Assembly: GCA_964016885.1 (NCBI GenBank)
Contig: OZ024742.1
Location: 243,474,001 to 243,538,000 of the forward strand
Direction of reading: 5' to 3'
DNA from: Eledone cirrhosa
Taxonomy: Eukaryota
DNA: 64,000 nt
The notes below the pieces were generated by a model. The model made no database searches. It saw only the letters and a program-made list of their open reading frames with translations, and was not told the DNA's origin. Made by a program: the position numbers and the translations under genes. This document shows, piece after piece, positions 22,701-51,500 of the stretch. Numbering within the stretch: position 1 is the first letter of the stretch; every line of letters starts with the position of its first letter.

Positions 22701-25700
22701 ACTCCCATGACACTTCTATGAATCCTACAAATACGAACTATGAATATGAATTGCCTTCCTGCTACGAACACAATGCAAAACAACAACGCTTCCCAACTAT
22801 ATAGATTTGATCCCCATGCATGACACCTTGGGCTTGTGCCTTCTACTATGGCCTTGGATTGACAAATAATTTGAGTGGAATTTGTGAGATGGAAAAACTA
22901 TGAAAGCCCACTGCATAAATGTGTGTTTCTGACCTATATTGGTATATTGGGGAAGAATATAAAAATCAGTGAGAACATCCTCCCACCCCCAAAAAACAGC
23001 AACATTCCTTTGTCACTCTTGCTGTCAGAATGCAATGATTAGCAGATCAGAAACCTGTAATCAACGATGCTATTATTCCCCAATTATGATATGAGAAATA
23101 AAATGTTTAGTAGATACCATAAAATGAAAGGTAAATTCCAGGAAAGCACTATAAAAAAGTTAGGTTCTTGAAGAGTGACCGAGAGGAATAAGTAGACACA
23201 AAATTAAGGACCCAGCATTGATTGTCAGTTATAACCATAAAAACCCACACATTCTAAAACCCTTCTCTATAATTCTGGAACTTTGTATGTAATCAAAATA
23301 AATCAATTATTTCAAGTGTTGATCTGTTAGCATCATGAAAACTTTCTTATACAACTTCGTGCTTTGAAAAGTATTAAAATTTTGTTAATACATAAATTTT
23401 GCTATTTCAAAATGCTGGTATAATGTAAGTTCTAAAAACAATGCTCTGTTACTTACCAGGAGGAACAAAAATAGATTGTGTTGGAGCCGCAGTAGAGGTT
23501 GGAAGCAATATATTGAATAGATTCTCAGGTACGGCTTGAGATGTTGCAGTAGGATTCATTACATCAACATACTGGTTCCTGGCACCTAGTTTAAGGAGAA
23601 AAGGGAATAATTTAACACAGGACATTCCTTAGAAATACATTATTAATACATAGATTAATAAAAACAAAACATTTCCATTTGTAAACACCATGAATAACAA
23701 TCTATAATTATAATGATGTCAAAGAGATTATGGGTTTTAATATGCAATATAAAGTGGCTTCATAAAAGAAACAGAAACATTCATCAATTATATGAGATTG
23801 AATTGACAGTATCGGTAGAGGGTCGGACATGCTTTCCAGCATAGTTACGTCCTCTTACGATCTGAGTTCATATCCTGCCGAGGTTAACTTTGCCTTTCAT
23901 CCTTACGGGGTCGATAAAATAAAGTACCAGTAATGTACTGGGTAATTGCTGGCCTTGTGCCAAATGTAGAAACAATTATATGAGAGGTTGAAATAGTACA
24001 ACTATGAGAAGGCTGAGTGAGAATTATTTTCAATATTGCAGACACATGGATTAGTGGTTAGAACATTGGCCTTGCAATCGAAAGGTTGTGAGTTCAATTC
24101 TCAAACCGGGTGATGTGTTGTTTCCTTGAGCAAGACACTTTATTTCACATTGCTCCAGTTTACTCAGCTGTAGAAATGAGATGATAGGGACTGGGGTCCA
24201 TATCATTCCACTGCAAAGTGGTCGTGGAGGTGCCACGGCAAAACACCACCCAGCACTCACTGTAAATGAGGTTGGTGTTAGGAAGAGCATCCAGCTGTAG
24301 AAATCAAGCCAGAATCAGTTCCCGTCCCACCCTTGCAAGCAGGGAAAAGCGGACGTAAAATGATGATGATGATTGCACTGTTGAATTCAAATCTTGTTAA
24401 GTTCAACTTGATCTTTAATTCCACCTTGAGTAAATAAAATAAGTACCAGTACAATATTAACATATCAACAAACTCTCTATTGTGGCAAATCAATAACACA
24501 TTTATGTATTATTTTATATCATGCATGATGTGAACAATAGTATAGGTTTCCAATAGGACAATCACTGATTTACTGCATCTTCAATGGCAAGAGTGACAAA
24601 GAAATGTTTTGTGCAACCCAGTGTGCCTGCACATATGTATGTATACACAAAATGTTGCCGACTATGGTCGCTTTACACACACACACAAGATTCAAAACAG
24701 TTTTTGTCTATCAAATTCGACAAACGAAGCATTGCTTAACTCAAAGACACTTTCCCCAAGATACTGCACTGTGAAATCAAATCCAGAAGCATGTGGTTGC
24801 AAAGTGAAATTCTGAATCACACAGCTATATCTGCACCTGTTCTTGTAGTATTCATTACTGTGAAATAGCATTAAAAGATTAAGAGAATGTGCTAAACAGA
24901 AGTGAACACATTGTAGGCAGATCATCTAAAACCAAAAAGGATTATATTTTGAGTTCTTAGCAATGTGAAACATTAAGCAAGAATATTTATTAGGTTAGAT
25001 TAAATACCTAACAGTTTAGATTAGACATGATGCTCTTTTCTATTTTTGATCCTATTGGTGATAAGATAGAAGAGGACATTTTAAGAATAAAGAATACATT
25101 TATAATACTGAATAATTTATAATCAACAAAGTAAGTAAAGTATGAGAGAGGAATTCCAAAATGTTCTACTTCAAAGTCAAACTACTCATACAGACAAAGT
25201 AGATTATTGAAGCTGTAGTGACCTACATTCCGAGGGCTCATGGATACATTCTCCGTACGTTATTTGGCTCAGTTCAGCCAATCGCTACCAGCGTAGGAGA
25301 GTGTATCTCGACTTCCGCCCAGAGGGGGGATTCCTGCGGCGATTCGAAACTCTCTCTCTCTCTTGCAGCTCGACACTATGAAAGTAAACATCTCTTGCTT
25401 TCGTTCCTTCAGGCATAGACAATATGTAGCAACAGATATCACTATGGGTCTGGCTAACGCCTCAGCCAGTTGACCGTACATTTAAACCTTTATAACCTTT
25501 TTAATGATAACATTAACTATCCTCTCAAGAGACATTATTCTAACCTTTGTAATCTGTAAATAAATTATATATAAACAATTATAAAGTCGTAAGATGCTAT
25601 TTTCCACAACATTGCTTTTAACATTTTCAATGGTGACTTCTGTGATACAATACACAAATACACACATTCTCAACACAAACATCTACTAAACAACCTCTTC

Positions 25701-28700: not shown

Positions 28701-31700
28701 AAAAAGGACAAGAGGATGACCGACAAATATGCTATACATTGCTCCTCTCCATCAATAGTTAAAAAGGTGTACTGCAGGGAATTTACTGGAAAAAGGAGAG
28801 GATGACCAACAAAATGTTAAGTAGACAACCTCTGAGAGGATATTGGTTTCCCACTTCTTATATGTGAATGCCTCCCTAAAGATCATACTTCCTGAAACCA
28901 TTCAGATTCATAAAAATTAAGGGATTCACAGTAGTCCTATACTTTTAGTGCAATGTAATATGTTTAAATTCCAATCAAAATTTCATAACATCCCAAGTCA
29001 TAGCATAAGGTTTTAGTTGATCAATACCAGCATAATATACTAATATCTGATGCTAAAATATTTTAAAAGAAACTCCAGTTTTGATTAGATTGAAAATTAT
29101 AATTGAAACACTTTTGTAATCTATGCATTAGAAATATAGTCACAAAATCATCATAATTTTACATCGACTTTCCATGCTGGCATTAGTTGGATAGGTTGTC
29201 ATCACCCAAGTAAGCCGTTATTCTTGGTTACTGCCCTCCAAAACATGTTCCATATTTGTCATAGCTTTTACAACTGGTTGTCCTTAACACAACCACACCA
29301 CTGAGTGTATTTTATTGTGTGACAAACATTAGAGAGGTTGCCTTGTCCTCTACAAGATGATAAAATCCTCTCTACTCTATACTGTGTCTGTTCTTTCAAG
29401 ATTAACAAGACAGAAAGGGTGAATAGAAGAGAGACTCTTGAATAAGCAGACAATACATGGATATGAGTCAGGCAGGAGAAACTAAGTCATATGAGTAATG
29501 GGATAGTTGAGAAGGAAGTAATAGAAGATAGACAGTGTTAGCTATATGGTGATTGTTGGTAAGGAAATCGAATAGAAAAACAGTGTGAGCAGCAATAAAT
29601 ATCAGTGATAAGAAGAGAAAACACGTGATGGATTGTAATAGGTGAGAGTGGTATATGTCAATGAAGAGTACTGAATATAAACAGATCTAATGCTGTCCCT
29701 CGTTACACAAGACAGGAAAGGGAGTGAGTAAGAGATAAGAAGGCAATGAAGATGTCAGTATATGGAGACTTAACAAGAATATAATTCTAACTGAATATTT
29801 AAAACAGTTCATTTTGTGAGCTACAATAAAGCAGTAACTAAAATTAACAATTTTGGTAACCTGCAATTAGAATACCCAAAATAGATTGTGTATCAGTTTG
29901 ATCATGATTCTAGTTAAATTATGATTCTAGATATTAGTTTAGCTATATGAATTGTTTTTAAAAACATTATGTAAATCTAAATGTTTAATTTAACACCACT
30001 AAGATTTATAGAATTTAGTGAGAATGGAAATGGGTTAATTGTGAAAGCAATGGAGGCATGTGGAATCACATTCACATAAACATCTGTTTCTTTTATAATT
30101 TGCATGGAGAAAAAATTAGTTGCTTCTAATCATAAAAAGGACAATAAAAAGGCAGGAAGAATACATACAAAAAGTTATGGGTTTTGGGGGGTTGTTTTCT
30201 TTTAAGAGAAATACTTATAGTTTTATAAGCCTTTTACTCCCAGATATTATAAGTAAGTAGCAGAGAAAGAAATTATTAAAGTTCACAATAAAAGGAGTAT
30301 GAAATATTAATTATAATACAACTGCTTCAACAAGATAACTAGGGTAGCAGCAATCATCACAGGTTAAAATTATTGCTGCAATAAAAATAATGTTTAACTG
30401 TATACAAAGAAAAAAGAATGTGCGATTATAGCATTGTAAGAAGAATAAAACAAGGTGCACAGCAATATGCAATAGTAATGCAATTTGCTAACATTAATAT
30501 CCCAATTAGTCAACCCCTTTTTCTAGTGAACAGCAGTTACTATATTAATAAGTCATCTGGCAACCACATGATATACAACTAGTAAATAATTAAATGAATA
30601 AAGAGAAACTTAATGTCAAAAATTAATAACAGAAAAAGAGCAATAATAATATTGTTCTGTGGTAATTACAATTGAAAATATACAAGCTTGCCAAACTTCC
30701 TTTTTTCACAATTTTTTTTCAGGATTACAAAGCATGCAATTTGCATTCCAGACAAAACATAGCTACAATAACAACTAGTTTACTGGGAGTGATTAGCAAC
30801 TACAGTCACATAACATTGAGAAAGAGACACACAACACAGAAAGCAGCAACGACAATGTATGAAGCTTTATTTGACCTAAATTAAAACATATATTAAGACT
30901 TTTGTAAATGCAATGATAGAAGGAAAATTCATGTGTAGTAATATTATATCAAATGTAACAGTACTTGCTTATCAAAGATAATGTTAGATAATACAAAAGT
31001 AAAAATCCTGTCTGATAATGACACTTTATCATAGTTTCTACAAATTGTGAAATATCAGAAGTTGATAACCTAGATGAAATGCAGTTTGGATTTGTGCCAG
31101 GTAAAAGTACCACGGATGCTCTCTTCTTTGTGAAGCAACTGCAGGAGAAGTATCTAGCTAAAAGTAAACCCCTCTAATTAGCTTTTGTTGACCTGGAGAC
31201 AACCTTTGATAGAGTACCCCGTGCCATTATCTGGTGGACTCTTAGAAAACTACGAGTAGATGAGTGGCTTGTAAAGGCAGTACAAGCCATGTATAGAGGA
31301 ACAGTCTGCAATGTCAGAATTAACAATGACTATAGCGAAGAATTTAGTGTGCAGGTCAGGGTTCATCAGGGCCCTCTCCTGTTTATTATCATCCTACAGG
31401 CTAAAAGAGAAGAGTTTAAGACTGGCTGCCCATGGGAACTTCTGTATGCAGATGATCTAACCCTTATAGGTGAATCTGTGGCAGAATTAAAGAAGAAATT
31501 AAAAACCTGGCAGTATGGCCTAGAATCAAAGGGTTTTAAATTTAACTTGTCAAAGACCAAAGTTCTAGTATGTGGAAAGGAAAACAGGGCCCAGATTCCC
31601 TCAGAGAAATAGTCTTACTTAGTGTGCAGAAAAGGAGTAGGTATAAATTCCACCCTATGTCCCAAATGTGAGCTATGGGTACACAAAATTTGTAGTGGGA

Positions 31701-34700
31701 TTATAGACAGGCTATCTAAGAATGAAGGCTTTATATGCAGCCAATGCACAAGTGCAGTAAGTAGCAAGAGCCCACACGATACAAACTCCTTCAAATGCCC
31801 AGAGGGCTCTGTAGAAAGAGTCAACAGTTTCTGTTACCTGTGTGACCAAATTAGCAGAGGAGGAGGGTGTTTCGCAAGTATAGTAGCCAAAGTAAGGGCA
31901 GCTTGTATGATGCATGTATACAAACAGCAATGTTGCATGTATTGAGATCTGGGCACTATGAGCAGAGAACCTAGGGAGATTGGAAAGAAATGAAGCCTGC
32001 ATTCTCCAATTGATGTGTAATAGTAATATACATAAATGGCAAAGCATAAATAACCTGAGAGAGAAAATGGGCATAAGTGGGATCAGATGCAGTGTGCAAG
32101 AGAGGATATTGCGTTGGTATGACCATGTGATGAGTATGAAGGATGACACCTGTATAAAAAGGTTCAGGGTGATCAAAGTTGATGGAAGCTATGGAGTGGT
32201 AGACCTCGGATGAGGTAATAAAAGCTCACCTTGCACAATTGCACCTCTCAAAGGCAATGACACAGGATCTAGTTCTTTGGCATTAGGCAGTAATACAAAA
32301 GTTCCACCTTCCCATGCACACGGTTGAAGCATACATCTAGTATGCACCACTAAACCCCTATCCTCCCTCCCACTTCCACGCCATAATGCTCCACCCATAT
32401 CCTAATCACCCCACCCTTCTTGCACACTTTTACACACCCTGCCCCAGTCCCCAGCCTACACTGAAGTGGTCATGTAGGTGTCACAACAACAAACATCCAG
32501 CATACACTGTAAATGTGGTTGGTTTTAGGAAGGGCATCCAGCTGCAGAAACCATGCCAGAAATAGTTCTGTATGAGCAAGTCACAGTCACCTGACCTGAC
32601 TTGCTTCAAATGAGACAGCCCATTTAACCAATGCTAGTGTCAAAAATGGACATATGATGATGATGACAAAAAGTAACAATGAATACAAGTATTTTAAGGC
32701 CATTTTCCCTGCCATGACAGGTTTCATATTTATCATGGGGCATTCTTTTTGAATCGATATCACAACCCTTATGGTAACCTCTTACATGCAGGGACATAGT
32801 GTACCTATGCTCTACGAGATACACAGAGAATAAAAGTAACAATATCAATTCACTGCTCATCTAGGCAGCATTTAGCTTGTGGTCAATCATTAGATCACAC
32901 TGTTCAGATATTGAGAGTGTTAAAAACAAAAAGAGCTATATGGAATCTGTACTTAAAGTTTAAATTACTAAATGACAGGGTCAGTGAACTAAATGAGCAA
33001 TAGAATGTAGGAAGCTATTATCTTTAGTGAACAGTGTGAGAAGATTATCAATTCCATGGAGAAACCTGATAAAACATTGTTAGTGGAAAAGTACTTACCA
33101 CGAGTTCGGGGTAGAGCAAACTTATTCCCAGTTGGTGGTGGAGGACCTGCACAGGGAATAGAGGCTGGAAAGAAAGAAAGATTGAATGAATAAGTGAAAA
33201 GAAAAAGAAAAAGAAAAAGAAAAAGAAAAAGAAGAAAAAAAATAAAAAGAAAGAAAAAGACAGAAAGAAAAAGACAAAGACAGAGACAGAAAGAAAGAAA
33301 GACAGACAGACAGAAAGAAAAAGAAAGAAAGACAGGCAGAAAGAAAAAGAAAGAAAGAATTAATGACAAAAAGAAATAATTAATGAATAAATGAGTGAAT
33401 GGAAAGAAAGATTGAAAATTTTAAAAAAATGAAAAGTGGGTGGGTGGGTGCATGACTATATATGTGTATATAAGTGGGCTGGTAGGTGGGTAGATAGTTG
33501 AGTAGGTAGGTGGATAAACTGGTAGATAAGTGGGCAGGTAGGTGGAGAACAGGTAGTTGAGCAAGTAAGTAGGTAGGTAGGTATTATAGATGGGTGGTTA
33601 AACAGGTAGGTAGATGGGTTAGTAGCTAGGATAGTAGGTGGGTGAGTAGCTAGGAGAGTAGGTAGGTAGGTGGTTAGCTAGGAGAGTAGGTAGGTGGGTT
33701 AGTAGCTAGGAGAGTAGGTAGGTAGGTGGTTAGCTAGGAGAGTAGGTAGGTGGGTTAGTAGCTAGGAGAGTGGGTAGGTGGGTTAGTAGCTAGGAGAGTA
33801 GGTGGGTGGGTGAGTAGCTAGGATAGTAGGTAGGTAGGTGGGTTAGTAGCTAGGAGAGTAGGTAGGTGGGTTAGTAGCTAGGAGAGTAGGTAGGTGGGTT
33901 AGTAGCTAGGAGAGTAGGTGGGTGGGTTAGTAGCTAGGAGAGTAGGTAGGTGGGTTAGTAGCTAGGAGAGTAGGTAGGTGGGTTAGTAGCTAGGAGAGTA
34001 GGTGGGTGGGTGAGTAGCTAGGAGAATAGGTGGGTTAGTAGCTAGGAGAGTAGGTGGGTGGGTGAGTAGCTAGGATAGTAGGTAGGTGGGTTAGTAGCTA
34101 GGAGAGTAGGTAGGTGGGTTAGTAGCTAGGAGAGTAGGGGGGTGGGTGAGTAGCTAGGATAGTAGGTAGGTAGGTGGTTAGCTAGGAGAGTAGGTAGGTG
34201 GGTTAGTAGCTAGGAGAGTAGGTAGGTGGGTTAGTAGCTAGGAGAGTAGGTGGGTGGGTGAGTAGCTAGGATAGTAGGTAGGTAGGTGGTTAGCTAGGAG
34301 AGTAGGTAGGTGGGTTAGTAGCTAGGAGAGTAGGTAGGTGGGTTAGTAGCTAGGAGAGTAGGTAGGTGGGTTAGTAGCTAGGAGAGTAGGTAGGTGGGTT
34401 AGTAGCTAGGAGAGTAGGTAGGTGGGTTAGTAGCTAGGAGAGTAGGTGGGTGGGTTAGTAGCTAGGCGAGTAGGTGGGTGGGTTAGTAGCTAGGAGAGTA
34501 GGTAGGTGGGTTAGTAGCTAGGAGAGTAGGTAGGTGGGTTAGTAGCTAGGAGAGTAGGTAGGTGGGTTAGTAGCTAGGAGAGTAGGTGGGTGGTTGAGTA
34601 GCTAGGATAGTAGGTAGGTAGGTGGTTAGCTAGGAGAGTAGGTAGGTGGGTTAGTAGCTAGGAGAGTAGGTAGGTAGGTGGGTTAGTAGCTAGGAGAGTA

Positions 34701-37700
34701 GGTGGGTGGGTGAGTAGCTAGGATAGTAGGTAGGTAGGTGGGTTAGTAGCTAGGAGAGTAGGTAGGTGGGTTAGTAGCTAGGAGAGTAGGTAGGTGGGTT
34801 AGTAGCTAGGAGAGTAGGTAGGTGGGTTAGTAGCTAGGAGAGTAGGTGGGTGGGTTAGTAGCTAGGAGAGTAGGTAGGTGGGTTAGTAGCTAGGAGAGTA
34901 TGTGGGTGGGTTAGTAGCTAGGAGAGTAGGTAGGTGGGTTAGTAGCTAGGAGAGTAGGTGGGTGGGTTAGTAGCTAGGAGAGTAGGTGGGTGGGTTAGTA
35001 GCTAGGAGAGTAGGTAGGTGGGTTAGTAGCTAGGAGAGTAGGTGGGTGGGTTAGTAGCTAGGAGAGTAGGTAAGTGGGTTAGTAGCTAGGAGAGTAGGTA
35101 GGTGGGTTAGTAGCTAGGAGAGTAGGTGGGTGGGTTAGTAGCTAGGAGAGTAGGTGGGTGGGTTAGTAGCTAGGAGAGTAGGTAGGTGGGTTAGTAGCTA
35201 GGAGAGTAGGTGGGTGGGTTAGTAGCTAGGAGAGTAGGTGGGTGAGAAGCTAGGAGAGTAGGTGGGTGGGTTAGTAGCTAGGAGAGTAGGTGGGTGGGTT
35301 AGTAGCTAGGAGAGTAGGTGGGTGGGTTAGTAGCTAGGAGAGTAGGTAGATGGGTTAGTAGCTAGGAGAGTAGGTGGGTGGGTTAGTAGCTAGGAGAGTA
35401 GGTAGGTGGGTTAGTAGCTAGGAGAGTAGGTGGATGGGTTAGTAGCTAGGATAGTAGGTGGGTAAGTAGCTAGGAGAGTAGGTAGGTAGGTGGTTAGCTA
35501 GGAGAGTAGGTAGGTGGGTTAGTAGCTAGGAGAGTAGGTAGGTGGGTTAGTAGCTAGGAGAGTAGGTGGGTGGGTTAGTAGCTAGGAGAGTAGGTAGGTG
35601 TATGAGTAGCTAGGATAGTAGGTAGGTGGGTTAGTAGCTAGGAGAGTAGGTGGGTGGGTTAGTAGCTAGGAGAGTAGGTGGGTGGGTGAGTAGCTAGGAT
35701 AGTAGGTGGGTGGGTTAGTAGCTAGGAGAGTAGGTGGGTGGGTTAGTAGCTAGGAGAGTAGGTAGGTGGGTTAGTAGCTAGGAGAGTAGGTAGGTGGGTT
35801 AGTAGCTAGGAGAGTAGGTGGGTGGGTTAGTAGCTAGGAGAGTAGGTGGGTGGGTTAGTAGCTAGGAGAGTAGGTAGGTGGGTTAGTAGCTAGGAGAGTA
35901 GGTAGGTGGGTTAGTAGCTAGGAGAGTAGGTAGGTGGGTTAGTAGCTAGGAGAGTAGGTGGGTGGGTTAGTAGCTAGGAGAGTAGGTGGGTGGGTTAGTA
36001 GCTAGGAGAGTAGGTAGGTGGGTTAGTAGCTAGGAGAGTAGGTGGGTGGGTTAGTAGCTAGGAGAGTAGGTAAGTGGGTTAGTAGCTAGGAGAGTAGGTA
36101 GGTGGGTTAGTAGCTAGGAGAGTAGGTGGGTGGGTTAGTAGCTAGGAGAGTAGGTGGGTGGGTTAGTAGCTAGGAGAGTAGGTAGGTGGGTTAGTAGCTA
36201 GGAGAGTAGGTGGGTGGGTTAGTAGCTAGGAGAGTAGGTGGGTGAGAAGCTAGGAGAGTAGGTGGGTGGGTTAGTAGCTAGGAGAGTAGGTGGGTGGGTT
36301 AGTAGCTAGGAGAGTAGGTAGGTGGGTTAGTAGCTAGGAGAGTAGGTGGGTGGGTTAGTAGCTAGGAGAGTAGGTAGGTGGGTTAGTAGCTGGGAGAGTA
36401 GGTGGATGGGTTAGTAGCTAGGATAGTAGGTGGGTGAGTAGCTAGGAGAGTAGGTAGGTAGGTGGTTAGCTAGGAGAGTAGGTAGGTGGGTTAGTAGCTA
36501 GGAGAGTAGGTGGGTGGGTTAGTAGCTAGGAGAGTAGGTAGGTGGGTGAGTAGCTAGGAGAGTAGGTGGGTGGGTTAGTAGCTAGGTGAGTAGGTGGGTG
36601 GGTTAGTAGCTAGGCGAGTAGGTAGGTGGGTTAGTAGCTAGGAGAGTAGGTGGGTGGGTTAGTAGCTAGGAGAGTAGGTAGGTGGGTTAGTAGCTAGGAG
36701 AGTAGGTGGGTGGGTTAGTAGCTAGGAGAGTAGGTGGGTGGGTTAGTAGCTAGGAGAGTAGGTGGGTGGGTTAGTAGCTAGGAGAGTAGGTAGGTGGGTT
36801 AATAGCTAGGAGAGTAGGTAGGTGGGTTAATAGCTAGGAGAGTAGGTAGGTGGGTTAGTAGCTAGGAGAGAAGGTGGGTGGGTTAGTAGCTAGGAGAGAA
36901 GGTGGGTGGGTTAGTAGCTAGGAGAGTAGGTGGGTGGGTTAGTAGCTAGGAGAGTAGGTGGGTGGGTTAGCAGCTAGGAGAGTAGGTGGGTGGGTTAGTA
37001 GCTAGGAGAGTAGGTAGGTGGGTTAGTAGCTAGGAGAGTAGGTAGGTGGGTTAGTAGCTAGGAGAGTAGGTGGGTGGGTTAGTAGCTAGGAGAGTAGGTA
37101 GGTGGGTTAGTAGCTAGGAGAGTAGGTGGGTGGGTTAGTAGCTAGGAGAGTAGGTGGGTGGGTTAGTAGCTAGGAGAGTAGGTGGGTGGGTTAGTAGCTA
37201 GGAGAGTAGGTAGGTGGGTTAGTAGCTAGGAGAGTAGGTGGGTGGGTTAGTAGCTAGGAGTAGGTGGGTGGGTTAGTAGCTAGGCGAGTAGGTAGGTGGG
37301 TTAGTAGCTAGGAGAGTAGGTGGGTGGGTTAGTAGCTAGGAGAGTAGGTGGGTGGGTTAGTAGCTAGGAGAGTAGGTAAGTGGGTTAGTAGCTAGGAGAG
37401 TAGGTAGGTGGGTTAGTAGCTAGGAGAGTAGGTGGGTGGGTTAGTAGCTAGGAGAGTAGGTGGGTGGGTGAGTAGCTAGGAGAGTTGTGGGTGGGTTAGT
37501 AGCTAGGAGAGTAGGTAGGTGAGTAGTTAGGAGAGTAGGTGGGTGGGTGAGTAGCTAGGAGAGTAGGTGGGTGGGTGAGTAGTTAGGAGAGTAGGTAGGT
37601 GAGTAGTTAGGAGAGTAGGTGGGTGGGTGAGTAGCTATGAGAGTAGGTAGGTGGGTGGGTGAGAAGCTAGGAGAGTTGGTAGGTGGGTGGGTGAGTAGCT

Positions 37701-40700
37701 AGGAGAGTAGGTGGGTGGGTGAGTAGCTAGGAGAGTAGGTAGGTGGGTGAGAAGCTAGGAGAGTAGGTGGGTGAGAAGCTAGGAGAGTAGGTAGGTGGGT
37801 GGGTGAGAAGCTAGGAGAGTTGGTAGGTGGGTGGGTGAGTAGCTAGGAGAGTAGGTGGGTGGGTGAGAAACTAGGAGAGTAGGTAGGTGGGTGAGAAGCT
37901 AGGAGAGTTGGTAGGTGGGTGGGTTAGTAGCTAGGAGAGTAGGTGGGTGGGTGAGTAGCTCGGAGAGTAGGTAGGTGGGTGAGAAGCTAGTAGAGTAGGT
38001 GGGTGAGTAGTTAGGAGAGTAGGTGGGTGGGTGAGAAGCTAGGAGAGTAGGTGGGTGGGTGAGAAGCTAGGAGAGTAGGTGGGTGGGTGAGAAGCTAGGA
38101 GAGTAGGTGGGTGGGTGAGTAGCTAGGAGTAGGTAGGTGGGTGGGTTAGTAGCTAGGAGAGTAGGTAGGTGGGTGGGTTAGTAGCTAGGAGAGTAGGTGG
38201 GTGGGTGAGTAGCTAGGAGAGTAGGTAGGTGGGTGGGTGAGTAGCTAGGAGAGTAGGTAGGTGGGTGGGTTAGTAGCTAGGACAGTAGGTAGGTGGGTGG
38301 GTGAGAAGCTAGGAGAGTAGGTGGGTGGGTGAGTAGCTAGGAGAGTAGGTAGGTGGGTGGGTTAGTAGCTAGGAGAGTAGGTAGGTGGGTGGGTTAGTAG
38401 CTAGGAGAGTAGGTGGGTGGGTGAGTAGCTAGGAGAGTAGGTAGGTGGGTGGGTTAGTAGCTAGGACAGTAGGTAGGTGGGTGGGTTAGTAGCTAGGAGA
38501 GTAGGTAGGTGGGTGAGAAGCTAGGAAAGTAGGTAGGTGGGTGAGTAGCTAGGAGAGTAGGTAGGTGGGTGAGTAGCTAGGAGAGTAGGTAGGTGGGTGA
38601 GTAGCTAGGAGAGTAGGTGGGTGGGTTAGTAGCTAGGAGAGTAGGTGGGTGGGTTAGTAGCTAGGAGAGTAGGTGGGTGGGTTAGTAGCTAGGAGAGTAG
38701 GTGGGTGGGTTAGTAGCTAGGAGAGAAGGTGGGTGGGTGAGAAGCTAGGAGAGTAGGTGGGTGGGTTAGTAGCTAGGAGAGTAGGTGGGTGAGAAGCTAG
38801 GAGAGTAGGTGGGTGGGTTAGTAGCTAGGAGAGTAGGTGGGTGGGTGAGAAGCTAGGAGAGTAGGTGGGTGGGTTAGTAGCTAGGAGAGTAGGTGGGTGG
38901 GTGAGTAGCTAAGAGAGTAGGTGGGTGGGTTAGTAGCTAGGAGAGTAGCTGGGTGGGTTAGTAGCTAGGAGAGTAGGTGGGTGAGAAGCTAGGAGAGTAG
39001 GTGGGTGGGTTAGTAGCTAGGAGAGTAGGTGGGTGGGTGAGAAGCTAGGAGAGTAGGTGGGTGGGTTAGTAGCTAGGAGAGTAGGTAGGTGAGAAGCTAG
39101 GAGAGTAGGTGGGTGGGTTAGTAGCTAGGAGTAGGTGGGTGGGTGAGAAGCTAGGAGAGTAGGTGGGTGGGTGAGTAGCTAGGAGAGTAGGTGGGTGAGA
39201 AGCTAGGAGAGTAGGTAGGTGGGTGAGAAGCTAGGAGAGTAGGTGAGAAGCTAGGAGAGTAGGTGGGTGAGAAGCTAGGAGAGTAGGTAGGTGGATGAGT
39301 AGCTAGAAAAGTAGGTAGGTGGGTGAGTAGCTAGGAGAGTAGGTAGGTGGGTGAGTAGCTATGAGAGTAGGTGGGTGGGTGAGTAGCTAGGAGAGTAGGT
39401 AGGTGGGTGAGTAGCTAGGAGTAGGTGGGTGAGTAGCTAGGAGTAGGTGGGTGAGTAGCTAGGAGTAGGTGGGTGAGTAGGGATAGGTAGGTAGACAAAG
39501 ATTATGTGAATGTAGAGAATTACAGTACTGAAGCTTAGGAATAAAGTATTATAATTCCAATCAATCAAATAGTATCCAATCCAAATGATACTTTTCTTCT
39601 TTTTAATAACTTAAATTGATACTTTTACATCTGAAGACTGAAATTTATCTTGGTTTTAAGAGCGATAAGCAACTGAGAAAACAAGACTTCTCGCTAGATA
39701 AGATGTCAATCCACCACAATATAAACCCACAACTTCCACTGGTACCCGTTTTCAGCTGAGTGAACAGAAGCATCATGAAATGAAGTATCTTGTTCAAAGA
39801 CACAATGTATAACTCAGTCTGGGAATCAAACCCAACATGTTATGAACATGAACACTATGCCCTAACCTTTCTTTTTAATAAGGAAATAAAATGGTATATG
39901 TAAATTAAAATGTCTCTACATTCAGCTTACAACTATAATACTTTAACTATAAAATCTAGCTAGAGAAAATACAACTGTCAAATATTGAGCCTAAAATGAT
40001 GTTTAAACAGCAACATTGATTATGTTACATATTCTGTTACATATGCTATAAGTTACATAGTCTATAAGTTATTTATTCTACTACATACTCTATATGTTAC
40101 ATAGTCTATAAGTTACATATACTGCATTGAGAATGAGAGAAAGCTACTAGAATTGTTGCAGTTTAATCTTGGGTCAGTCAATAACCTACTTGTCTTCTAT
40201 TCAGATATCACAATATCCAATATACCACCACCACCACCACCCCACGCTTAATGTAAGCAAAATAGAGGCAAATTCGGTTCCCATTACTAGCAAGTCGCAT
40301 GGCTACATAGAAGTTCCTTTCTTGGTTCATGGACACCAAATGTAGGAACATGGATTTGAATAAGGACAACTAAAGAACAGTCATGAGATGTAGTTGTTAC
40401 CTTCAAGACATCCTGGAGGAAGTTATTGAAGAGTAACTTCTCCAGGGCCAGAGCATCAATAAATATAGGCTAAGCCCAAATTTAAAGGGAAAATACCCTT
40501 AAAATGCTTGTTCCATTTATTTTCTGAATGGAATATGAATCTTAGAGCATATCATTTTGCATAATGAATGCAGTTTTAAACAATGTTAAAATTTATTTCA
40601 AGGAAATCTACAATTTTAAAGTGTCTGCTTCACCCACTTATTCCAGTGGATCCTGTCAGAAACAACCATCTCCAATTGATTTGGCTGGGTCCCCAAGCAA

Positions 40701-43350
40701 GAACAGCCAAGCTCATGGATGTTATCCAACCATTTTGCTTGGGGTCTACTCCTGGGTCTCCTGGTGGTTGGTTTTGCCTGTAAAATCTGTCCAGCAATTC
40801 TTTTCTGAGATATTCTAACCACATGCCCATAATATCGGACCTGTGATTTCTCAATTCAGAGTAGCAGCTCTACTCTGATCTCCAAGCTACGCACTCTATT
40901 GAGTAACATTACACCAAAGAACCTTCGAAGGATCCCCATTTCGGCCACTTGTATTCACGATCATATTATTTTGGTCATTACCCAAAATTCAGGACCATAG
41001 ATAAAGGTTGGCAGGGATAGTGAGTTTGGTTTTTTAAACCTACCTCCCTTCTTCTGATTACCAAATGCTGATGTTGGCACATTACTGCACCCACTCCTGC
41101 AATTCATGCACTTAATTCAGGCTCCTGTGTTCCACCACTCGTGAACACAGCCACAAGATACTTGAACTTCTCCACTTGCATTAGTGAAACTCCATTCACA
41201 TGTAGAGTCCACTGCTCAGGCTTCTTTGAGAGGACAAGTGTCTCAGTTTTCACAGCCATGCAGCACTCAACATCAAACCTATCAAGTACATGTCAGAGAT
41301 CCCCTTCTAACAAGTTAAGTAATACCATGTCATATGCAAATTCCAGCTGACTGATCCTACGCCTGCTAATTGTGATACCCCTTCTAACCTAGCTGTGCAT
41401 GTCAATCCTGTTCATATAAATAATGAACAGGAGAGGTGACAGTACACACCCTTGGTGGAGTCCAACTCCCCATATTGAATGGTTTCAATTTAGCACCATT
41501 TATCCGAAAACAAATACTTGGACATTCGTATAAAGACATCAGGGCAACAAGAATCTGACCATCGATCCCATACACCTGCAGAACCTTCAACAGGTCCTGT
41601 GGAACACAGTCTTATGCCTTTTAAGGGTTTACAAAGCAAGAATACACCTCTTGGCAGTACTCCCATGATTTCTCAAAGACCTGCTGCAGTGTGAATATTT
41701 GGTCAGCTGTGGTGCCTCCGGGAACGAAAACTACACTGTTCATCAGCTAGCTTGGACTCAACAATCTCCCTAAACTCTTTGCCAGACACTTAGCAGAGAT
41801 TTTACTGGGTAGGCTTAACAAGGATATCTCTCTATAATTGGAACAATCTCTCTTGTCATCCTTTTTGAAAAATGGGATTATCTCTTTAAGTGTGATTTTG
41901 TTAATGGAGACCGTTGGTGACAAATTCATTACATTATCACTTCCATTTGTCTCTATTGCTCATATATTTTCTTTTGTTTTCTATGTCCCTTATTATCATT
42001 ATTTTATTGTTCTGAGTTCAAATCCTGTTGAAGTCACCTTAGGCTTTCCATCCTTCTGGAGTCAATAAGATAAAGTCAAGTACTGGGTTGATTTAACTGA
42101 CTAACACCTTTCACAAAGTTTCTGACCTTGTGCCTATGTTAAAAAATATCTTTATTTTACTATTATGAGGGGAGTAAATGTCTGGAATGGAAGAACACTG
42201 GATAGACTGATTTCTGGTATTCAGTTAGAACATCCCTTTCAGTTCTAAGTTCAAATCTTGTCAGGGTTGATTTTGCTTTTCATACTTCATGGATTTAAGA
42301 TACCAGTAAATTACTAGCATTAATTTGATTGACTGCATTCATTCCAAAAGTGTATGACCTTGAGACTTCAGCTAGAAATTATTGGATTGGCAGAATCGTC
42401 AGAGCATTGAACAAGATACTGTGTGGTATTTGTTCAGCACTTTACATTTTAACTTGAAGTACGGCCAAGGTCAACTTTGCCTTACCTAAGATCAATAACA
42501 AAGTACCAGTCAAATATTGTTGTTGATTTAATCAGCTAACCGTCTAAAACTTTTGGACTAGCACAAATGTTAGAAATCGTTATTAAATCCTGCCGAGGTT
42601 AGCTTTGCTTTTCATCCTAACAGAGTCGATAAAATACAGTACCAGTAACATACTGGGATTAATTTAATCGACTTTCCCCTCTCCCAAAATTGCTGGTCTT
42701 GTGCTTAATTCAGAAATTATTTTTATTATTAGTTATTCAGTTTATTCAGTAAATGATTCACCTTTGAAAAAATAACTACTAAAATGAGGATAAGCTTTCA
42801 ATCTCTTGTTTCAGGGAGGCAACTTTGTGAAATATATTCCAAGGGAAACAATTTCATTTATATATATACCGCATTTCCCGGCGCCAAAGACGCTTTGTCT
42901 TCAAGGACGCACCCTAATTTTGACAACCAAAAATTTGAAAAAAAATAATAAACAACCTTCGGCCTCCAGGACGCATGGGTGATTTAAAAAAAAAAAGTAA
43001 CATCTTCAACGCTGGGAAATACAGTATATATATACATGAAATATGTATATGATGCAACACTGATTCTTTGTTCCCTTATATATTAATACTATATATCATC
43101 ATCATCATCATCATCAACGTTTAACGTCCGTGTTCCACGCTTGCATGGGTTTGGACGGGGGTTTTCCCACTTGAGGCAAGAGTGATTATCTTGCTCGCAT
43201 AGGACTGTCTGGCGGGTTTTCTACAGCTGGATGCCCTTCCTAACACCAACCACATTTACAGTGTGGGGCTGGGAGGTTTTTACTGTGTTGCCTACACGGC
43301 CACATTACAGCGTGGACTGTCTGGCAGGTTTTCTACAGCTGGATGCCCTT

Positions 43351-43383
<33 letters not shown>

Positions 43384-45465
43384 GCGCGCACGCACGCACA
43401 CGCACACACACAGTGTTGTGCATAATTCAACGACCACCCCAATAATTTTATTAGGTTGTGTTTATTAGATAAAAGTACAATTATTAGATAAAAATAGTAT
43501 ATTATTACAAACATACAACACAAATCATTTACAAATTGACTATTCCAAATTGACTATTCCAAATTAGTACTTTGTTTGATGACCTTTAGCAGCTATTACT
43601 GAAGCAATTCTGCAAGGCATTGATCCCACCAAGGAGGCACAATATTCAGGAGTAATTTGTTGTGTCCATACAGTAAGAATTTTTTTTTGTAAATCAGTAA
43701 TTGAGCTGGGATTTAGCTTAGCAACTTTGTCTTTCATCAATTTCAACAGTTTTCAATTGGATTTAAGTCAGGACTTGAACCTGGCCAAGGTGCCAGCACT
43801 TCAATATCAGATTCTTGAAAACATTGGTTAATGGTTTTTGCCCTATGGCAAGGAGAACCATCTTGTTGATATATCTTGCAACCATGCCTCTCCAATGGGA
43901 TGTTTTCTCACATGATTTCCAAATACATGTTTGTATTTACAGTCTTTCCTGCTGGAATTATGGTCGGTGCAGCTCATCCATTTATGCTTATTGATCCCCA
44001 GACCATCAATGATTGTGAATTTTTAACTGTTGATTTGACATAACGAGAATTATAACACTGTCCAGGTGGTCTTCTTAGATGGTGAGCAAATAAGGGGCAA
44101 ATTGTCTAATTAATGTTTCATCACTAAACATTACCTCACCCTATTGAGCAGCAGTCCAGTGACAATAAGTGCTACAGAACAACAGACGGTCCTTGATGCT
44201 TTATTTGAAAGTTGAGGCTTGGCAGCTGGCTTAAAAGTCTTTAACACAGTGTCATCGGATGGTAAAGATATGTTTATGTCCTGAGGAAGTTGAGCTTGGA
44301 TATATGAACTGGAAGCAGTTGGATTTGACACTGCAAGTCAGCGTATCGTGATCTGTTTGAACACTTATCTTCCATGCCGCTTGTTTGGGTTAAGAGTGCC
44401 TGTTGTTGCACTACAGGCAAGTATTTTTTGAACACCAGCCTTAGATAGACCCAATCATACAGATATTTCGTGCTGGGAAGCCTTGCTCATGAAGGAGGAG
44501 GATATTTGCACATTTATCACTGTGGGCTGGTAGCTTTTTGTTGTGTCACTAACATGACCACTTTACAGTGTAGGCTTGGCGCTTTTTGTCATGACACCTA
44601 CACAACTACTTTACAGTGTGGACAGGGCACTTTTTGTCATGCCACCAAAATGGAGATATGCATGAGGAATGGGGAGGTAGATCTAGGGCATGGGTGAGGT
44701 GTAGGGTGTAAGGACTTTGGTGAGGTCTTATGAAGGCAGGTTTTCTGTATTACTGCATAACGCCAGAGAGGGACTTTGTGTTTGCAACTGTCACTGTCTC
44801 ATCTTCTGGTAAGAATAAAATCTATCTGGCTGGTGTGTTTACCTGATCTATAAGTGATTAAGTGGTCATTAGCATTGCAGAAACTAGATATAAGAGGAAT
44901 CAGAAGTAGTGTGCAGGAGAGGAGACGGGTATCGATGATGATCAGTGGGTAAAGAAGTGCTAAATAATACCAGTAGAAGGAAGCTGCAGTAGAAGAAGGC
45001 CAAGGAAGACCTGGATTGAAGTGGTGAGAGCTAATCTTATATTGTTAAAGCTCACAGAGAAAATAACAAAGGAATGCGACAAGTGTAGAGATGCTGGACT
45101 GAGAAGGACCTATCCAAACCATGCATTCATGGAACAACAGACGTAAAATGGTGATATGTATATAGACACAATTAGTGTTGACATTTTAGTCTTATAAATT
45201 CAATGGATGATACAAGCTAACAACTATTTCAGCATGTCAATATTGTAGTGAATATGTCAGGAAGATAATCTTACGTTTTAGTTCTATATCCTTAGGTGGT
45301 GGAGCAGCTTCAGTCTCTGGCTCTTCCTCCTCTCCTGTATTGATCCATTTCTTTCTGTCGGCATCCCACACAATCTGATAAAGAAACAAGTGTTATAAAC
45401 AATGATAAAATATATATAAATATATAGGTGGACTATCAAAACAATAAAAGCTTAACTGTAGGAGA

Positions 45466-45531
<66 letters not shown>

Positions 45532-48500
45532 CACCATCATTTAACGTCCATCTTCCATGATTACATAGGTAGGACCCTTTGTGAGAGATCAGGTCAGGGG
45601 ACCGTGATTCGCTCACATACAACTGATTTTGGCTTGGTTTCTACAGCTGGATGCCCTTCCTAACACCAACCACATTGACAGTTATCTCTTCGTTAGCCTC
45701 AGAGAAATTATTAATCAATATATTGGCTACCAGATATAATTTGGCAACCAGTTATTATTTCTGATTGAAATAAAGAAACAATTCCAGCAGTGGTATAAAA
45801 AGAAACATGGTGAGATACCAGAGGTTCCAGATTTTAGCAATCAAACAGAGGTGATATAGGGTTTTAGAGGACTCTTCAGTTCATCTGAACATGACAACCT
45901 CTCTTGTATTGGTGCCATGATAAAATGCGCCCAGAACACCCTATAAAGTAGTAGTGCTGGTGCAACAACAAAAAAAGATACCCAGTAAACTGTAAGATGG
46001 CTGGCATTAGGAAGGGCATCCAGCTGTAGAAATGTATAAGCAAGATGAGATCACTTTCACCTGTTTAGCCACAGACTGTGACAATCTGTCTAAGCCATGC
46101 CAGTGTGTAAAGTTGATATTAAAATGATGATGGTGATGATTATGATGATGAAATTAAAGTGTGCCATGATAATATACAGTAATAAGAATATGGTGTTTTA
46201 CAACCAAAGGTTTATAGATGAAGAAACATGCAATTTATTTTAGATTAATAGCTAAAACAACCAAACAAATTATCTTTTTATTTATAATGATGACTTCTTT
46301 AATTAAATTTAATCATTGATAAAAAGTATATACTAAATAATAAGTAGATAATACTATAGCAGAGTTGGCATTAAAAAGGGCATCCAGCTGTAGAAGCCAA
46401 GCCAAAATACTGATTAGTATGAACATGACTTGATCTCTGAACTTGACTTGTCTCAGAACAGGACAACCTGTCTAACCCAAGCAATGTCAATCTGAACTAA
46501 AAGTAAATCTTTATATTTCATCAGTCATCAAAAATAGAAATTTGTAACCAATGGCAGCAAACTTTTCAAACAGAATCCATAAAGACAGGATTCAATTAGT
46601 AACGGAGGTTGCTGAATTGAAAACAACTAGTTTAATAAGGGACTCAATAAATATTGGAAGAAATTTAAATATTTATCTATCTCATGGAAAGAGATATTTC
46701 AAATGAGTTGGCTTTTACTGGCTTCTTCTATAAGCCAGAAAAAACTGTAATATAATTTAACCATTTGAATACAAAACTGACTGAAACTGCCCTTGGTTCT
46801 AAGATACAAAACTTTATATTTATCTAAAAACCTTCCATCATAATTTTCTCTAAGAACATTTTTAAAGTTATGTTCTAAATACTAAATTGATAATGAGAAA
46901 ATTATTTTCCATGATTTTAAAATCATAAGCAGTGTCTTTCATTAGAAATATAGTAATAAAAGGATAGGATTATAAGATTTTTAAAAATCTCAATGCAACT
47001 TACAGCAGGATTTTTATCTTCAGGAAGTATCATTTCATTCTTCTTCTGCCTTCCAAGTTGACTGAATATATTCAAACTATTCCACCAGCCCTTGTTCTCT
47101 TCCTGAAGTAGTAATGAAATTCCAAGTTATCATTGTTAATAGTTAGTATTAGTTAGTATTGTTATAAGTGGAGATCACATGTTTCAATCCTTACTCTGAA
47201 AGAAGTATACTCCTAATGATGATTGTTTTGTGACAATTAGAACACCATTTCAATACTAGGGCAGGAAATATGTTTACTTAGTAAAGTCAAAATATATCTA
47301 TTAGTAACTTGATAGATAATTTTAAAATTTGTTTGGATTTTTCTTTAGGGGTCAACAAGGATTAAAGAAAACTCTTTCAATATATTTAGTAGATTTATGA
47401 CAATATAAACTGAATAGCTATTATATAACTACTTATATATAACTACTTATATATAACTACTATTATACAACATAATTAATAACTTATAACAACAATATCC
47501 TTATTTGTGCAAGTATCCCAAAACTACAATGCCATTCACTCTAAATTTCAAAAGCTTCCATTTGTCATCTGCATCTTATACCAAAATGGACTTTCTTCAT
47601 TTCATATTATGGCAGAGGTACAGTAACTATATTCTTTTACTCTTTTATTGGTTTCAGTCATTAGATTTCGACCATGCTGGGGTACTGCATAGAATGGATT
47701 TGGTCACAGAACGGATTTGGTCAATCATATCGACAGTATTTTTTCCATTCTCCTCTTATTGAACCACTAAGTTATGGAACATAAACAAACAATAAACATA
47801 AATACAAACACAGAGATACATACACATATATAGGTACACAATAAACTTCTATGCAGTTTCCATCTATGAAATTTCACTGACAAGGCATTGGTCAACCCAA
47901 GGCTATAGTAAAAGACAATTGCCCAAAGTTCTACACAGTAGGACAGAACCTGAAACCATGTGATTATGAAGTAAACTCCTGAACCACACAGCCCTGCATG
48001 CACCTATTACAATGCTGAATATAAATTTTGCCAAAAAAATTCTTTTGAACTTTTATGCAAAATACATAACTGCCAAATAATGATTAAAAAGCGCATGCAA
48101 CTACCAAGAACCTGTTCTAAGAATTCATGCAAATGAATGATTTTTTTATAATAATCAGAGTTAATATGGTGAAATATAAAATAGTCTAAAACCTATGTAA
48201 ATAAATTAGTATTCCATATGAAAACCTAAGAGAACAGGATTAGTATTTTTTATTTTAACTTACTGGTTTGGGTTTGGTGATATTTGTTTTCTTTGGTGAT
48301 GCGAGTTTGACACTATTGGCACTGCTATTGCTAACATTGCTGCTTTCTGATGTTGTGCGCTGGCGATTATTATGGTAGCGTGTTGGTGCAACGATAGGCT
48401 ACAAAAAAAAGAAAAAATACTCATAATAAATTCACTCTTTCCTTAATATTTTGAATGACAACAACCATAACAACAGTTTCAAATTTATTGGTGAGATGGC

Positions 48501-51500
48501 TATTAGAAATTAAGATTTGTATTACTGACATAAGCAGAACAGTTCCAGTATAAAACCAAAAGAGGACAGCAAATTCAATTCAGGAAAAACTTACAGCAAA
48601 GAACTTACCTTTCTTGCTATTCTAAGTTCATTCTAATAAAAATAGAGTACAACTAAAAACTACATGGCTGTTTCATTTTATTAACATTGGGGGGTAACTC
48701 TGGCATGATCTTAACTTAAAGAGTGAGGTACCAAACAAGATAAAGTGAAACAGTTCAGTTTTTATTGCTACAAGCAAAAATAATACTATTTTCTGTAAAC
48801 ATCTGTAAATATATATTATACATAGCATCTCATCCAAACAACATCCTGCCCTTAAAATAATTCTTTACACTTGCTAGTCTATCCATTGATAGATTTAATT
48901 TCATAAATCATAAAACTGAATGTTATTTATCCACATTAGCAGAGTAATATATAATCCATGTTGTACCTTTACTTTAGTACAATCCATGTCTACTATTTAT
49001 AGTCAATTGCATCTTATTAATAAAGGCATAACACTATTTCCACTAAAAGCCCAAGTATATTTTTTCTGGCATTCTATCAGCTAACTGAACACTCTATAAA
49101 AAAAAAATGCCTTTTGATAAAAACTATAATTAACAAACTATTTCATAACTTACATCACTGTAAACTTAAATAATATATTGGGATAATAAAATTAAATTAA
49201 ACATCCAGAATAGTGAGTTGATAAGTTTTACATTTGTTATTCGAATTATAGGTTTGCTCAAATATAGCTCACCAGAACTATCCAACAGCTAGGTCTTTTT
49301 CAAGTAAGCAAATGAATAGCTCAAGGTTATTCTTACAAACATCAATAAATTTCTATTAGTGCTGAGTTAAATCAAGCCATAGAAACTCAAGATATTTCTT
49401 TTATTAACATTAACAATTTATCTTCCCTTTTTCTTTAATAAGAGTTATCCCCAATCTTTAAAAAATGAGATAAGCTATCAAATGATAATTATCAGTATAG
49501 AGAAAGGAAAAGCCGGTTGCTTTAAATATATGTATTATTGTGTGATATACTTCAGAAAAACAGATTCTTCAAACTGACTAATTTTATCCAATAGTTCTAT
49601 TGCTGGTGAAAAAAAACAGCATCCAGCTATGAAAAACCAGCTAAAAAACAAGAACACAAACACAGACATGTGCAACTGTTGTCAGCATGGAAGGCATAAA
49701 ATACCAGTTTATTTTTCAGTTGATTCTTTATTGTTATTTAATTTAATATTATTACTATTTATCCACTTTGTTGTCAACTGTTCATGCCCATCTCTACTGT
49801 AGATTCAAACACATTTAAAAATCAATTGAATCGATTGACAAGATCTGACCTCATTCACTTACCAAGTGGAGTGGAACTCGTCAAATCAGACCAGTGAAAC
49901 AATGTTTTCATTGGTCTTTCCATTGCTGATACTATCTACCTGTTGCAACTCCTGGCAGAAAGAGCAATGTGAAATAAAGTGTCTTGCTCAAAGACATAAC
50001 ACATCACTCGGTCTGGGAATCAAACTCTCAACCTCACAATTGCAAATTCAACTCTCTAACCACTAAGCCACGTGTCTTCTGCATGGCAAAATATGAAAAA
50101 TGCACCGACATCATGAACAGCCATTCTCTTCATGGCAAAATATGGAGTATGGTTCATAACTTGAAAATAGTGTAGTATATATTTTTATATATTTAGGTGT
50201 CATTAACTGTTGTTGCTGTTGTTGTTTTTATGTTTGAAATACTTTTACTGAAAGGTTAATTTCATACCAGGAATCTGGTTTTTATACCCCATAATGGAGC
50301 CATTATTTTCACCATTTTAAATATCATCACTTTCATTGTCATTACCAACATTTTATATCGATTTTCTATGCTTACATTGATTAGATAGGTTGTCATGTTC
50401 TGAGGTTAGAAGGTCAAATGACATTCTGTTCTGGCAAGGGTTCTATGGATGAATACCCTTCCGAATGTCAACCACTTAGCATGTGCCAGATACATTTTAT
50501 TGACACCACCACTATCACTACCACCAGACAGGGTGTGCTGGGAGCTTTTTTAACATGACATCAGCACTACCACTTTACAGATTGAGCTGGGTGCATTTTA
50601 TCATGACACCAGCACTACCACTTAAGAGTGTGGGATGAGTGCATTTTATAGTGGCACCAGCACTATATTTAATGCTAATAATATAAAACATCAAGTTCTA
50701 AAGATTAAGCAGTAAACTCTGAGAGAACCAAATATGTAATGTCGTTTCAATTTCCATGTGAAGCTTTTTTGGTTCATTTATGCAACTAATGCATTTGTAA
50801 GAAAAGCCTGATCAAACAAATTTCTTTTATCCTCTTGATAAAACTGGTCATCCATTGATGGATATTTCTAATCCCAAAATAGCAAACAACTGACTACCAT
50901 ACCAGTGCTTAAGATAAAGAAATATATTTTATACATTAGAACATAAATTTACAGCAATAAAAAAAAATTATAAGATTAAATGTCTAATTTTCTGTGATGA
51001 TTTGGTAATAAGATTATATAATTTCTCAGTCTATTAACCTCAACATTAGAGATGAAACATTTTTAATATTTACATTTACATAAATATAATCTTAATAATA
51101 ATGAGAAGTCTTGTGCCGTTTGAAAATTTAAGATTTACAACTACTGTAAGATCTGCTTTTCTTTATGTAAGATCTCTTCAAGACACCACTTTAATTTCTT
51201 AATAAATAAAATAAATGGTTCAACTATAATGTGCAAGAAAAAAGACTGCTCTGGTACAATGCATACAAGTAATGATAGTTGGATGAAGAAAGGTGAAGCA
51301 ATCCATGTAGAAAGAGCTTAAAGAAGTGATGAATGGTAATCTCAGGATGCTGAACCTCAAAAGATGAAACATGACTCAAAACTGTCCATTCCATGTGAGC
51401 ATGGAAAAATGGATGTAAAATGAGGGCAATGTAAAGAATATAGTTATTTTATTGATGAAACCACTTCAAATTCTTGATTCTTTTCACAAATTAATTGACA

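Follow-up and report, generated by a model that had tools for sequence, protein, structure and literature searches.

A minisatellite resembling 3' splice sites in a Sec16 intron of Eledone cirrhosa, probably tolerated and derived from a microsatellite

The window analyzed here is a stretch of 64,000 nucleotides (nt) from the genome of Eledone cirrhosa (contig OZ024742.1, positions 243,474,001 to 243,538,000 of the forward strand), in which several exons of the gene Sec16 lie on the minus strand. One Sec16 intron, 12,110 nt long, contains in the sense orientation a minisatellite whose unit reads like a 3' splice site, that is, a branch-point word (TACTAAC or a variant), a C-rich spacer and a YAG (Y, pyrimidine). 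Judged from the sequence, the array is probably a tolerated, microsatellite-derived repeat that mimics splice signals by chance and is predicted to be skipped in favor of the strong true acceptor downstream of it. The features on which the argument depends are as follows.

45275-45374, minus strand: Sec16 exon upstream of the array, 100 nt, with an IVWD motif; its donor starts the array-bearing intron
33606-39475, minus strand: the minisatellite, 210 units, mostly of 28 nt, with 134 TACTAAC and 204 YAG; 48% of the intron
37520-39481, minus strand: distal, more mixed part of the array, 71 units (TACTCAC 27, TTCTCAC 23, TACTAAC 20, other 1)
33606-37519, minus strand: proximal, more uniform part of the array, with TACTAAC in 114 of 139 units
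33430-33605, minus strand: degenerate (CTAC/CCAC)n flank, likely the parent microsatellite, with three AGs (33520, 33480 and 33457)
33165-33456, minus strand: AG-free zone of 291 nt, a long U-rich (CTTT)n-type tract directly before the true acceptor
33099-33164, minus strand: Sec16 exon of 66 nt, phase 1-1, with an N-x-F motif of the C-terminal region, a strong acceptor and a GTAAGT donor
23457-23585, minus strand: next Sec16 exon, with a YVDV motif, placed by homologue alignment

The identity of the host gene is indicated by homology. PF12931 (Sec16) has a single match above the cut-off in the genome, on the minus strand 7 kb beyond the window end, and full-length homologues retrieved by a profile search, some of them named Sec16 by their source, match exons in turn on the minus strand, including those at 47105, 45374, 33147 and 23601. 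The chain 48398-48264, 47102-47004, 45374-45275, 33164-33099 and 23585-23457 keeps the reading frame, and its borders have AG and GTAAG. An initial annotation of this DNA had placed the array in a minus-strand Sec16 intron running from a donor after 45275 to an acceptor at 33164, and both the Pfam match and the homologue alignment agree with it. Homologue searches with single Sec16 exons returned nothing or one fragment of 136 amino acids, the Atlas and solved structures gave nothing useful, and Pfam searches with six single exons yielded only one Sec16 match, below the cut-off.

Tandem Repeats Finder (TRF) describes the array at 33606-39475 as 210.4 copies of a 28-nt period with 90% matches, which bears out the ~5.9 kb and ~200 units of the initial annotation, and 210 units were parsed along the minus strand. 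The commonest branch word is TACTAAC (134 units), followed by TACTCAC (39 units), already recognized as its main variant, and TTCTCAC (25 units), whereas a YAG closes 204 units. Thus, of the ~200 complete modules that had been claimed, the YAG is present nearly throughout, but TACTAAC is found in only 134 of the 210 units. The branch A precedes the first AG by 21 nt, the distance originally proposed, in 118 of the 133 scored TACTAAC words and by 25 nt in another 10, distances within the 18-40 nt expected of a functional U2-type 3' splice site. When a strict module was defined as TACTAAC whose first AG is a YAG 15-45 nt away, behind a spacer of at least 70% pyrimidine, 132 of the 134 words qualified. 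The unit with the spacer CCACCCACC... is the commonest (53 copies) and outnumbers the one that the initial annotation quoted (47 copies). The array contains only three GT, none of them donor-like, and ends 461 nt (from its final TAG) before acceptor 33164, in keeping with its earlier description as nearly GT-free and as ending ~450 nt upstream.

The composition of the unit points to its origin. It consists of seven tetramers (CTAC, TAAC, CCAC, CYAC, CTAC, TCTC and CTAG), and the unit length is divisible by 4 in 203 of 210 cases. The unit quoted in the initial annotation is identical to (CTAC)7 at 21 of 28 positions (75%); moreover, CTAC and CCAC are the commonest tetramers of the array, and decayed CTAC/CCAC tracts lie on both of its flanks. 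When 140 nt of the array were searched against the genome, the locus itself was recovered, followed only by matches of 73-79% identity; each of the 16 next-best loci fetched is a (CTAC)n-type tract that contains 0-2 TACTAAC. Exact 17-mer matches are confined to the array in 126 of 127 cases. A dispersed satellite family is ruled out by these matches, and because the unit is private to the locus, there is no family on which the satellite orientation check of the initial annotation could be carried out. Kinship with a 19-nt array on C2 was also considered and rejected: in an informal comparison, made without a formal alignment, the two have a short core in common, but the units differ.

Locus-specific minisatellites, or variable number tandem repeats (VNTRs), that are built on degenerate microsatellites have units of 10-100 nt, occur at one locus, contain interspersed variants and block duplications, and are less uniform at their ends. 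The Sec16 array is the same in kind; its unit merely happens to read as a branch point, a C-rich spacer and a TAG. It is a head-to-tail array of 210 units of 28 nt, its variants are interspersed, its unit lengths change in steps of 4 nt (from 20 to 32 in the distal part), and a 14-unit block occurs twice in the proximal part, 1000 nt apart (starts at 36305 and 35305). The array is therefore likely to be a single-locus minisatellite that was amplified head to tail from a 28-nt piece of decayed (CTAC)n. Two changes would convert TACCTAC into TACTAAC and one would convert TAC into TAG, after which slippage in 4-nt steps and block duplication would have dispersed the unit variants along the array. 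The branch-point word and the TAG of the unit are likely chance point changes. A literature search on VNTRs built on degenerate microsatellites found no dedicated paper.

Whether the array could compete with the true acceptor depends largely on its spacer. The 17 nt before an array YAG contain 2-6 U (3-4 in 180 of 206), compared with 5-14 U and a median of 11 U for 18 candidate true Sec16 acceptors and 8-12 U in four acceptors found later. Hence, the array lacks a U-rich polypyrimidine tract like that of the host's own acceptors, as judged against the 18-site training set, and the term "complete consensus 3' splice site" overstates the unit, whose spacer has mostly 3-4 U against a median of 11. 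An acceptor matrix was built from the 18 sites; it is small, ignores the branch point, and includes about five sites that rest on open frames rather than on clear homology. The four later-found acceptors lie outside the matrix, and three of them are counted among the decoy YAGs. The leave-one-out median of the matrix is 6.9 bits and the true site at 33164, which is among the strongest of the gene, scores 9.9 bits, whereas the array has a median of -2.5 and a maximum of 1.5 bits. YAGs that reach the array median are found elsewhere in the gene (407 of 2083) and within the array-bearing intron itself (35 of 181).

The context of the array AGs is equally unpromising for productive splicing. The only donor-like site nearest to them is that at 33098, which would give exons of at least 527 nt. 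None of 207 array AGs leads to a stop-free exon (the median is 11 codons to a stop), and because a premature stop follows every one of them, use of an array acceptor would be unproductive. An alternative last exon within the array is ruled out, as there is no poly(A) hexamer. Recursive splice sites juxtapose AG and GT as a ratchet, but the array AG is followed by CT and the three internal GT are not donor-like. In the mechanism that we propose, the spliceosome would bypass the array and choose acceptor 33164: U2AF would bind the U-poor spacer weakly, exon definition would prefer the 66-nt exon to exons of at least 527 nt, and nonsense-mediated decay would clear rare mis-splicing. The caveat attached to the initial annotation, that the spacer is C-rich and the match may be coincidental, has turned out to be the best-supported reading.

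The initial annotation had also proposed a function, namely that the array is kept by selection as a copy-number-tunable switch, an intron-detention device or a condensate seed that governs how much Sec16 is made or whether the 66-nt exon is skipped. A role of this kind is very improbable. The exon at 33099-33164 is symmetric, so the frame stays intact on skipping; its N-x-F/Y motif, however, is kept in 22 of 23 homologues (the long ones in which the region could be located, of 38 examined), and for this reason the exon is probably constitutive and a copy-number-tuned switch acting on it unlikely. Four other snail isoforms have no internal gap at this exon relative to the longest one, and the alternative C-terminal segment of the snail protein (20 residues) matches a short exon elsewhere, near 17,930 on the minus strand of the window. 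In human Sec16, the regulated C-terminal exons are numbers 29 and 30 (PMC4980449), which may speak for a selected regulator.

The AG-free zone has been weighed in the same connection. It spans 291 nt before the 66-nt exon as opposed to 14-67 nt at 17 other Sec16 acceptors, and AG exclusion zones in human genes go with distant branch points and more frequent alternative splicing (PMC1431707). Nevertheless, the zone is itself a (CTTT)n-type microsatellite, and three AGs separate it from the array. A distant branch point is defined by the absence of an intervening AG (PMC1431707), but the last TACTAAC is followed by three AGs before 33164 is reached; under AG scanning, this excludes the array as the distant branch point of the 66-nt exon. 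TTAAT at 33383 and at 33363 could represent a distant branch point within the zone, unless the zone is just a microsatellite. The enrichment of TACTAAC toward the acceptor would suit a selected regulator, but the optimal word is absent from one third of the units, and the unit is locus-private and of plain microsatellite ancestry. Overall, the functional inferences of the initial annotation find no support in the sequence analysis.

How often such a unit should arise by chance was estimated from 60 evenly spaced 10-kb genome samples (600 kb in total; L051-L110). They contain 14 minisatellite arrays over 61 of 600 kb (~10% of the DNA), eight of which begin inside a sample, and five of the 60 pieces are array from end to end. 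This corresponds to an estimated ~40,000 minisatellite arrays genome-wide (17,000-79,000). In a chance model in which a random genomic stretch of unit-like length was made circular and scored, a strict module appeared with a frequency of 3.5e-5 per strand, so that ~2.8 arrays (1.2-5.4) are expected in the genome. Accordingly, the array is beyond chance as a repeat but not clearly so as a splice-signal match.

TACTAAC is also plentiful in repeats elsewhere. The genome is estimated to contain ~265,000 copies, of which the 134 of the Sec16 array make up 0.05%, and unrelated arrays contain 643 (C2:353.4 Mb), 301 (C1:4.06 Mb), 192 (C4:370.1 Mb, in 10 kb) and 135 (C1:76.2 Mb). A 24-nt C2 array of more than 30 kb has its first YAG 15-45 nt behind TACTAAC in 287 of 310 cases (one 10-kb piece), albeit across an A-rich spacer, and a 46-nt array on C15 has 36 strict TACT(A/G)AC modules. 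The latter (40 units, L039 8997 to L040 772, C15:38.355 Mb, minus strand) combines TACT(G/A)AC with a pyrimidine-rich spacer and CAG, is unrelated to the Sec16 array, and lies on the strand opposite to SH3 exons 13-29 kb away, which are the nearest exons; a gene spanning this array is only putative. Large unrelated arrays with hundreds of TACTAAC each were noted at C2:118.998-119.036 Mb, C2:353.41-353.43 Mb, C1:4.059-4.073 Mb and C2:27.36-27.39 Mb, and no Pfam-supported exon was found in the fetched flanks of the large C2 and C1 arrays. Among the fetched arrays, the Sec16 array has the most clean modules; the module-pattern searches of the genome cover the first 100 matches each, with 24 to 541 more per search, and a larger clean array may exist elsewhere.

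Several results weigh against the reading of the array as a chance, inert mimic. Among simulated (CTAC)7 derivatives with seven changes, the module arose in only 0.07% of trials, and the chance expectation falls to ~0.7 arrays if an intronic sense position is also required (half of the genome being assumed to be intronic). Tandem TACTAAC triplets number 54,253 genome-wide, ~80 of them within the Sec16 array, as compared with 6,164 for the reversed control, a ninefold difference; the excess is possibly due to TAC/AAC-rich repeats, and single TACTAAC words show no enrichment in random samples (53 vs 82). Strict modules number 132 in the Sec16 array, whereas the next of the 11 arrays scored has 12 (36 if TACTGAC is allowed). 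The share of TACTAAC climbs from 28% (20 of 71 units) in the distal 2 kb to 82% (114 of 139) toward the acceptor. Moreover, three bases never vary in the 163 standard units, namely the branch A itself, the T at the second position upstream of it and the first base of the AG; several further positions are equally invariant, and the position that distinguishes TACTAAC from TACTCAC (122 A, 41 C) is among the two most variable of the unit. A candidate Sec16 acceptor with TACTAAC and only 5 U scores -2.7, an array-like value, and in another gene a candidate acceptor has TACTAAC together with a tract interrupted by A; the weak tract at the array may thus likewise be offset by a perfect branch word. 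Finally, in an orientation survey of 18 TACTAAC loci (358 candidate exons filtered to 55, of which 17 were sent to Pfam), Pfam-supported exons were found near arrays at only three loci besides Sec16, and among these four loci, Sec16 included, the arrays are sense in three cases and antisense in one (p = 0.31).

Two of the sense arrays are instructive in different ways. A 67-copy array of a 47-nt unit (L046 3016-6161, C11:50.752-50.755 Mb, minus strand) contains 66 sense TACTAAC in an NHL-repeat gene, which looks like that of a peptide-amidating lyase. Its last TACTAAC stands 22 nt before the candidate acceptor, making it a candidate real branch point, which appears to have been tandemly amplified. 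This array shows that such amplification occurs in the genome and bears on the possibility that the Sec16 array likewise arose by tandem duplication of a present or former real Sec16 3' splice site, as in the mirage minisatellites of amphioxus. The amphioxus arrays in Adh3 and the globin genes BflGb6 and BflGb9 (PMC3087553) resemble the Sec16 array in being intronic splice-signal look-alikes near a true site, and they are apparently tolerated and unstable through unequal exchange. However, mirages copy, and abut, a real exon-intron boundary, while the Sec16 unit is unlike the U-rich, CAG-ending acceptor at 33164, stops 461 nt short of it, contains no exon sequence and descends from (CTAC)n. 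For Sec16, this origin is thus contradicted by the sequence and is the least likely of those weighed.

The second, a 7.3-kb array (L043 1561-8908, C1:76.21 Mb, plus strand), lies in an intron of a Cys-loop ligand-gated ion channel gene, with 135 TACTAAC in the sense orientation and open-frame exons to either side. It argues against an unlikely but more serious alternative, that the Sec16 array is neutral in origin yet active in cis: its 134 exposed UACUAAC words would bind SF1, a Quaking-type protein or the U2 small nuclear ribonucleoprotein (snRNP) and, in proportion to copy number, slow intron removal or cause some unproductive splicing. As the initial annotation correctly stated, TACTAAC is a high-affinity SF1 site that includes the QKI core (PMC3116199, PMC11483029). 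According to the same sources, SF1 is bound by UACUAAC words in tandem, which slow splicing in vitro (PMC3116199), and two ACUAAC words recruit QKI and block SF1 (PMC11483029). In mammals, poly(C)-binding proteins are able to activate C-rich tracts (PMC4797308), and tandem repeats within introns may change splicing in cis (PMC10078293). The genome encodes SF1 and a STAR/Quaking-type (STAR-dimer) protein, the array RNA is predicted to be open (centroid unpaired), and the 132 strict modules lie in sense, 0.46-6.3 kb upstream of the acceptor. On the other hand, because the words are 28 nt apart, bipartite QKI sites whose gap is at most 20 nt, in either order, number just one in the array (the 20-nt rule is from PMC11483029), the true acceptor is strong, and, according to the Gomafu paper (PMC3116199), nuclear retention of Slc8a1 mRNA was not brought about by eight TACTAAC. 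On the main reading, too, the nascent repeat may well be bound by SF1 or a Quaking-type protein, but with no effect.

The known systems that come closest differ from the array in telling respects. Like Gomafu (MIAT/RNCR2; PMC3116199), the Sec16 array offers many UACUAAC per RNA on the transcribed strand (134, in Sec16 sense), to which SF1, and QKI according to PMC11483029, could bind in principle. Gomafu has 3-7 words, with conservation extending from chicken to human, in an exon of a noncoding RNA that is stable, retained in the nucleus and active in trans, whereas the Sec16 words belong to a protein-coding gene, where they are part of a transient intron and of a locus-private minisatellite. 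A trans decoy effect, which would be one form of the decoy that the initial annotation envisaged, is implausible because 134 words are 0.05% of the genomic TACTAAC and because they belong to an intron, not to a stable nuclear transcript. In the human splicing-associated repeats (CFTR (TG)n, the 25-bp ABCA7 repeat and NARS2; PMC10078293), an intronic repeat near an exon may also act in cis via RNA-binding proteins, but there an association of length with splicing has been measured. The dual ACUAAC of RAI14 intron 10 (PMC11483029) likewise lies upstream of an exon; these words, however, are the exon's own branch points, unlike the array words, which are spaced at 28 nt and are separated from the exon by 0.46-6.3 kb and by intervening AGs. 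By the defining features of each class, the array is neither a Gomafu-type RNA nor a mirage and, if active at all, would work like a cis version of Gomafu.

The boldest form of this idea, an accidental Gomafu-like sink in which 134 evenly spaced UACUAAC would load SF1/U2 or Quaking onto nascent Sec16 RNA and make copy number a rheostat of intron removal, is improbable. If it were true, the turnover of repeats would give rise to tunable sinks for splicing factors within introns, and cephalopod genomes would repeatedly generate such sinks, with a sense-strand bias, from tens of thousands of arrays. If the array is ordinary, as we consider probable, it would illustrate the ease with which words of splice signals arise by chance in a repeat-rich genome of 3 Gb, and the large amount of decoy sequence that can be tolerated in a conserved intron. 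In either case, ~130 perfect branch words with weak tracts set against one strong acceptor provide a clean natural test of whether the mollusc spliceosome can be recruited by a perfect branch point that lacks a U-rich tract. Literature searches on octopus and cephalopod intronic minisatellites and on branch-point decoy minisatellites, outside of which most subscription papers fall, returned no paper that describes this array or a comparable one.

A few further observations concern the array and its surroundings. The template (plus) strand of 33606-39475 is G-rich (skew 0.86), with one telomere-like GGGTTAG word per TACTAAC unit; a canonical three-tier G-quadruplex was sought on it and rejected (0 matches, mean G4Hunter 0.95). 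An RNA hairpin from the array was rejected as well, the predicted centroid being unpaired (z -1.66), as was coding potential, the longest open stretch being only 59 codons. Two TACTAAC words 10 nt apart occur at 47148-47158 (minus strand), ~45-55 nt upstream of the homology-supported Sec16 exon 47102-47004, which is 99 nt long and of phase 0-0. This pair resembles the dual ACUAAC of RAI14 and, by that analogy, would be a better Quaking candidate than the array. About 20.7 kb beyond the window end (minus strand; L013), one TACTAAC, 5 U and a CAG directly followed by GTATGA mark a candidate Sec16 exon whose acceptor also reads as a donor. Three contig runs from one sample over 39500-48600 cover intron sequence with no exon-to-exon joint among the joints shown and are uninformative on splicing; one such contig extends 54 nt beyond this stretch toward the array. 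Translations of the Sec16 introns at 20690-22690, 31170-32220 and 40550-41960 of the window contain what are presumably decayed reverse transcriptase fragments of the long interspersed nuclear element (LINE) type.

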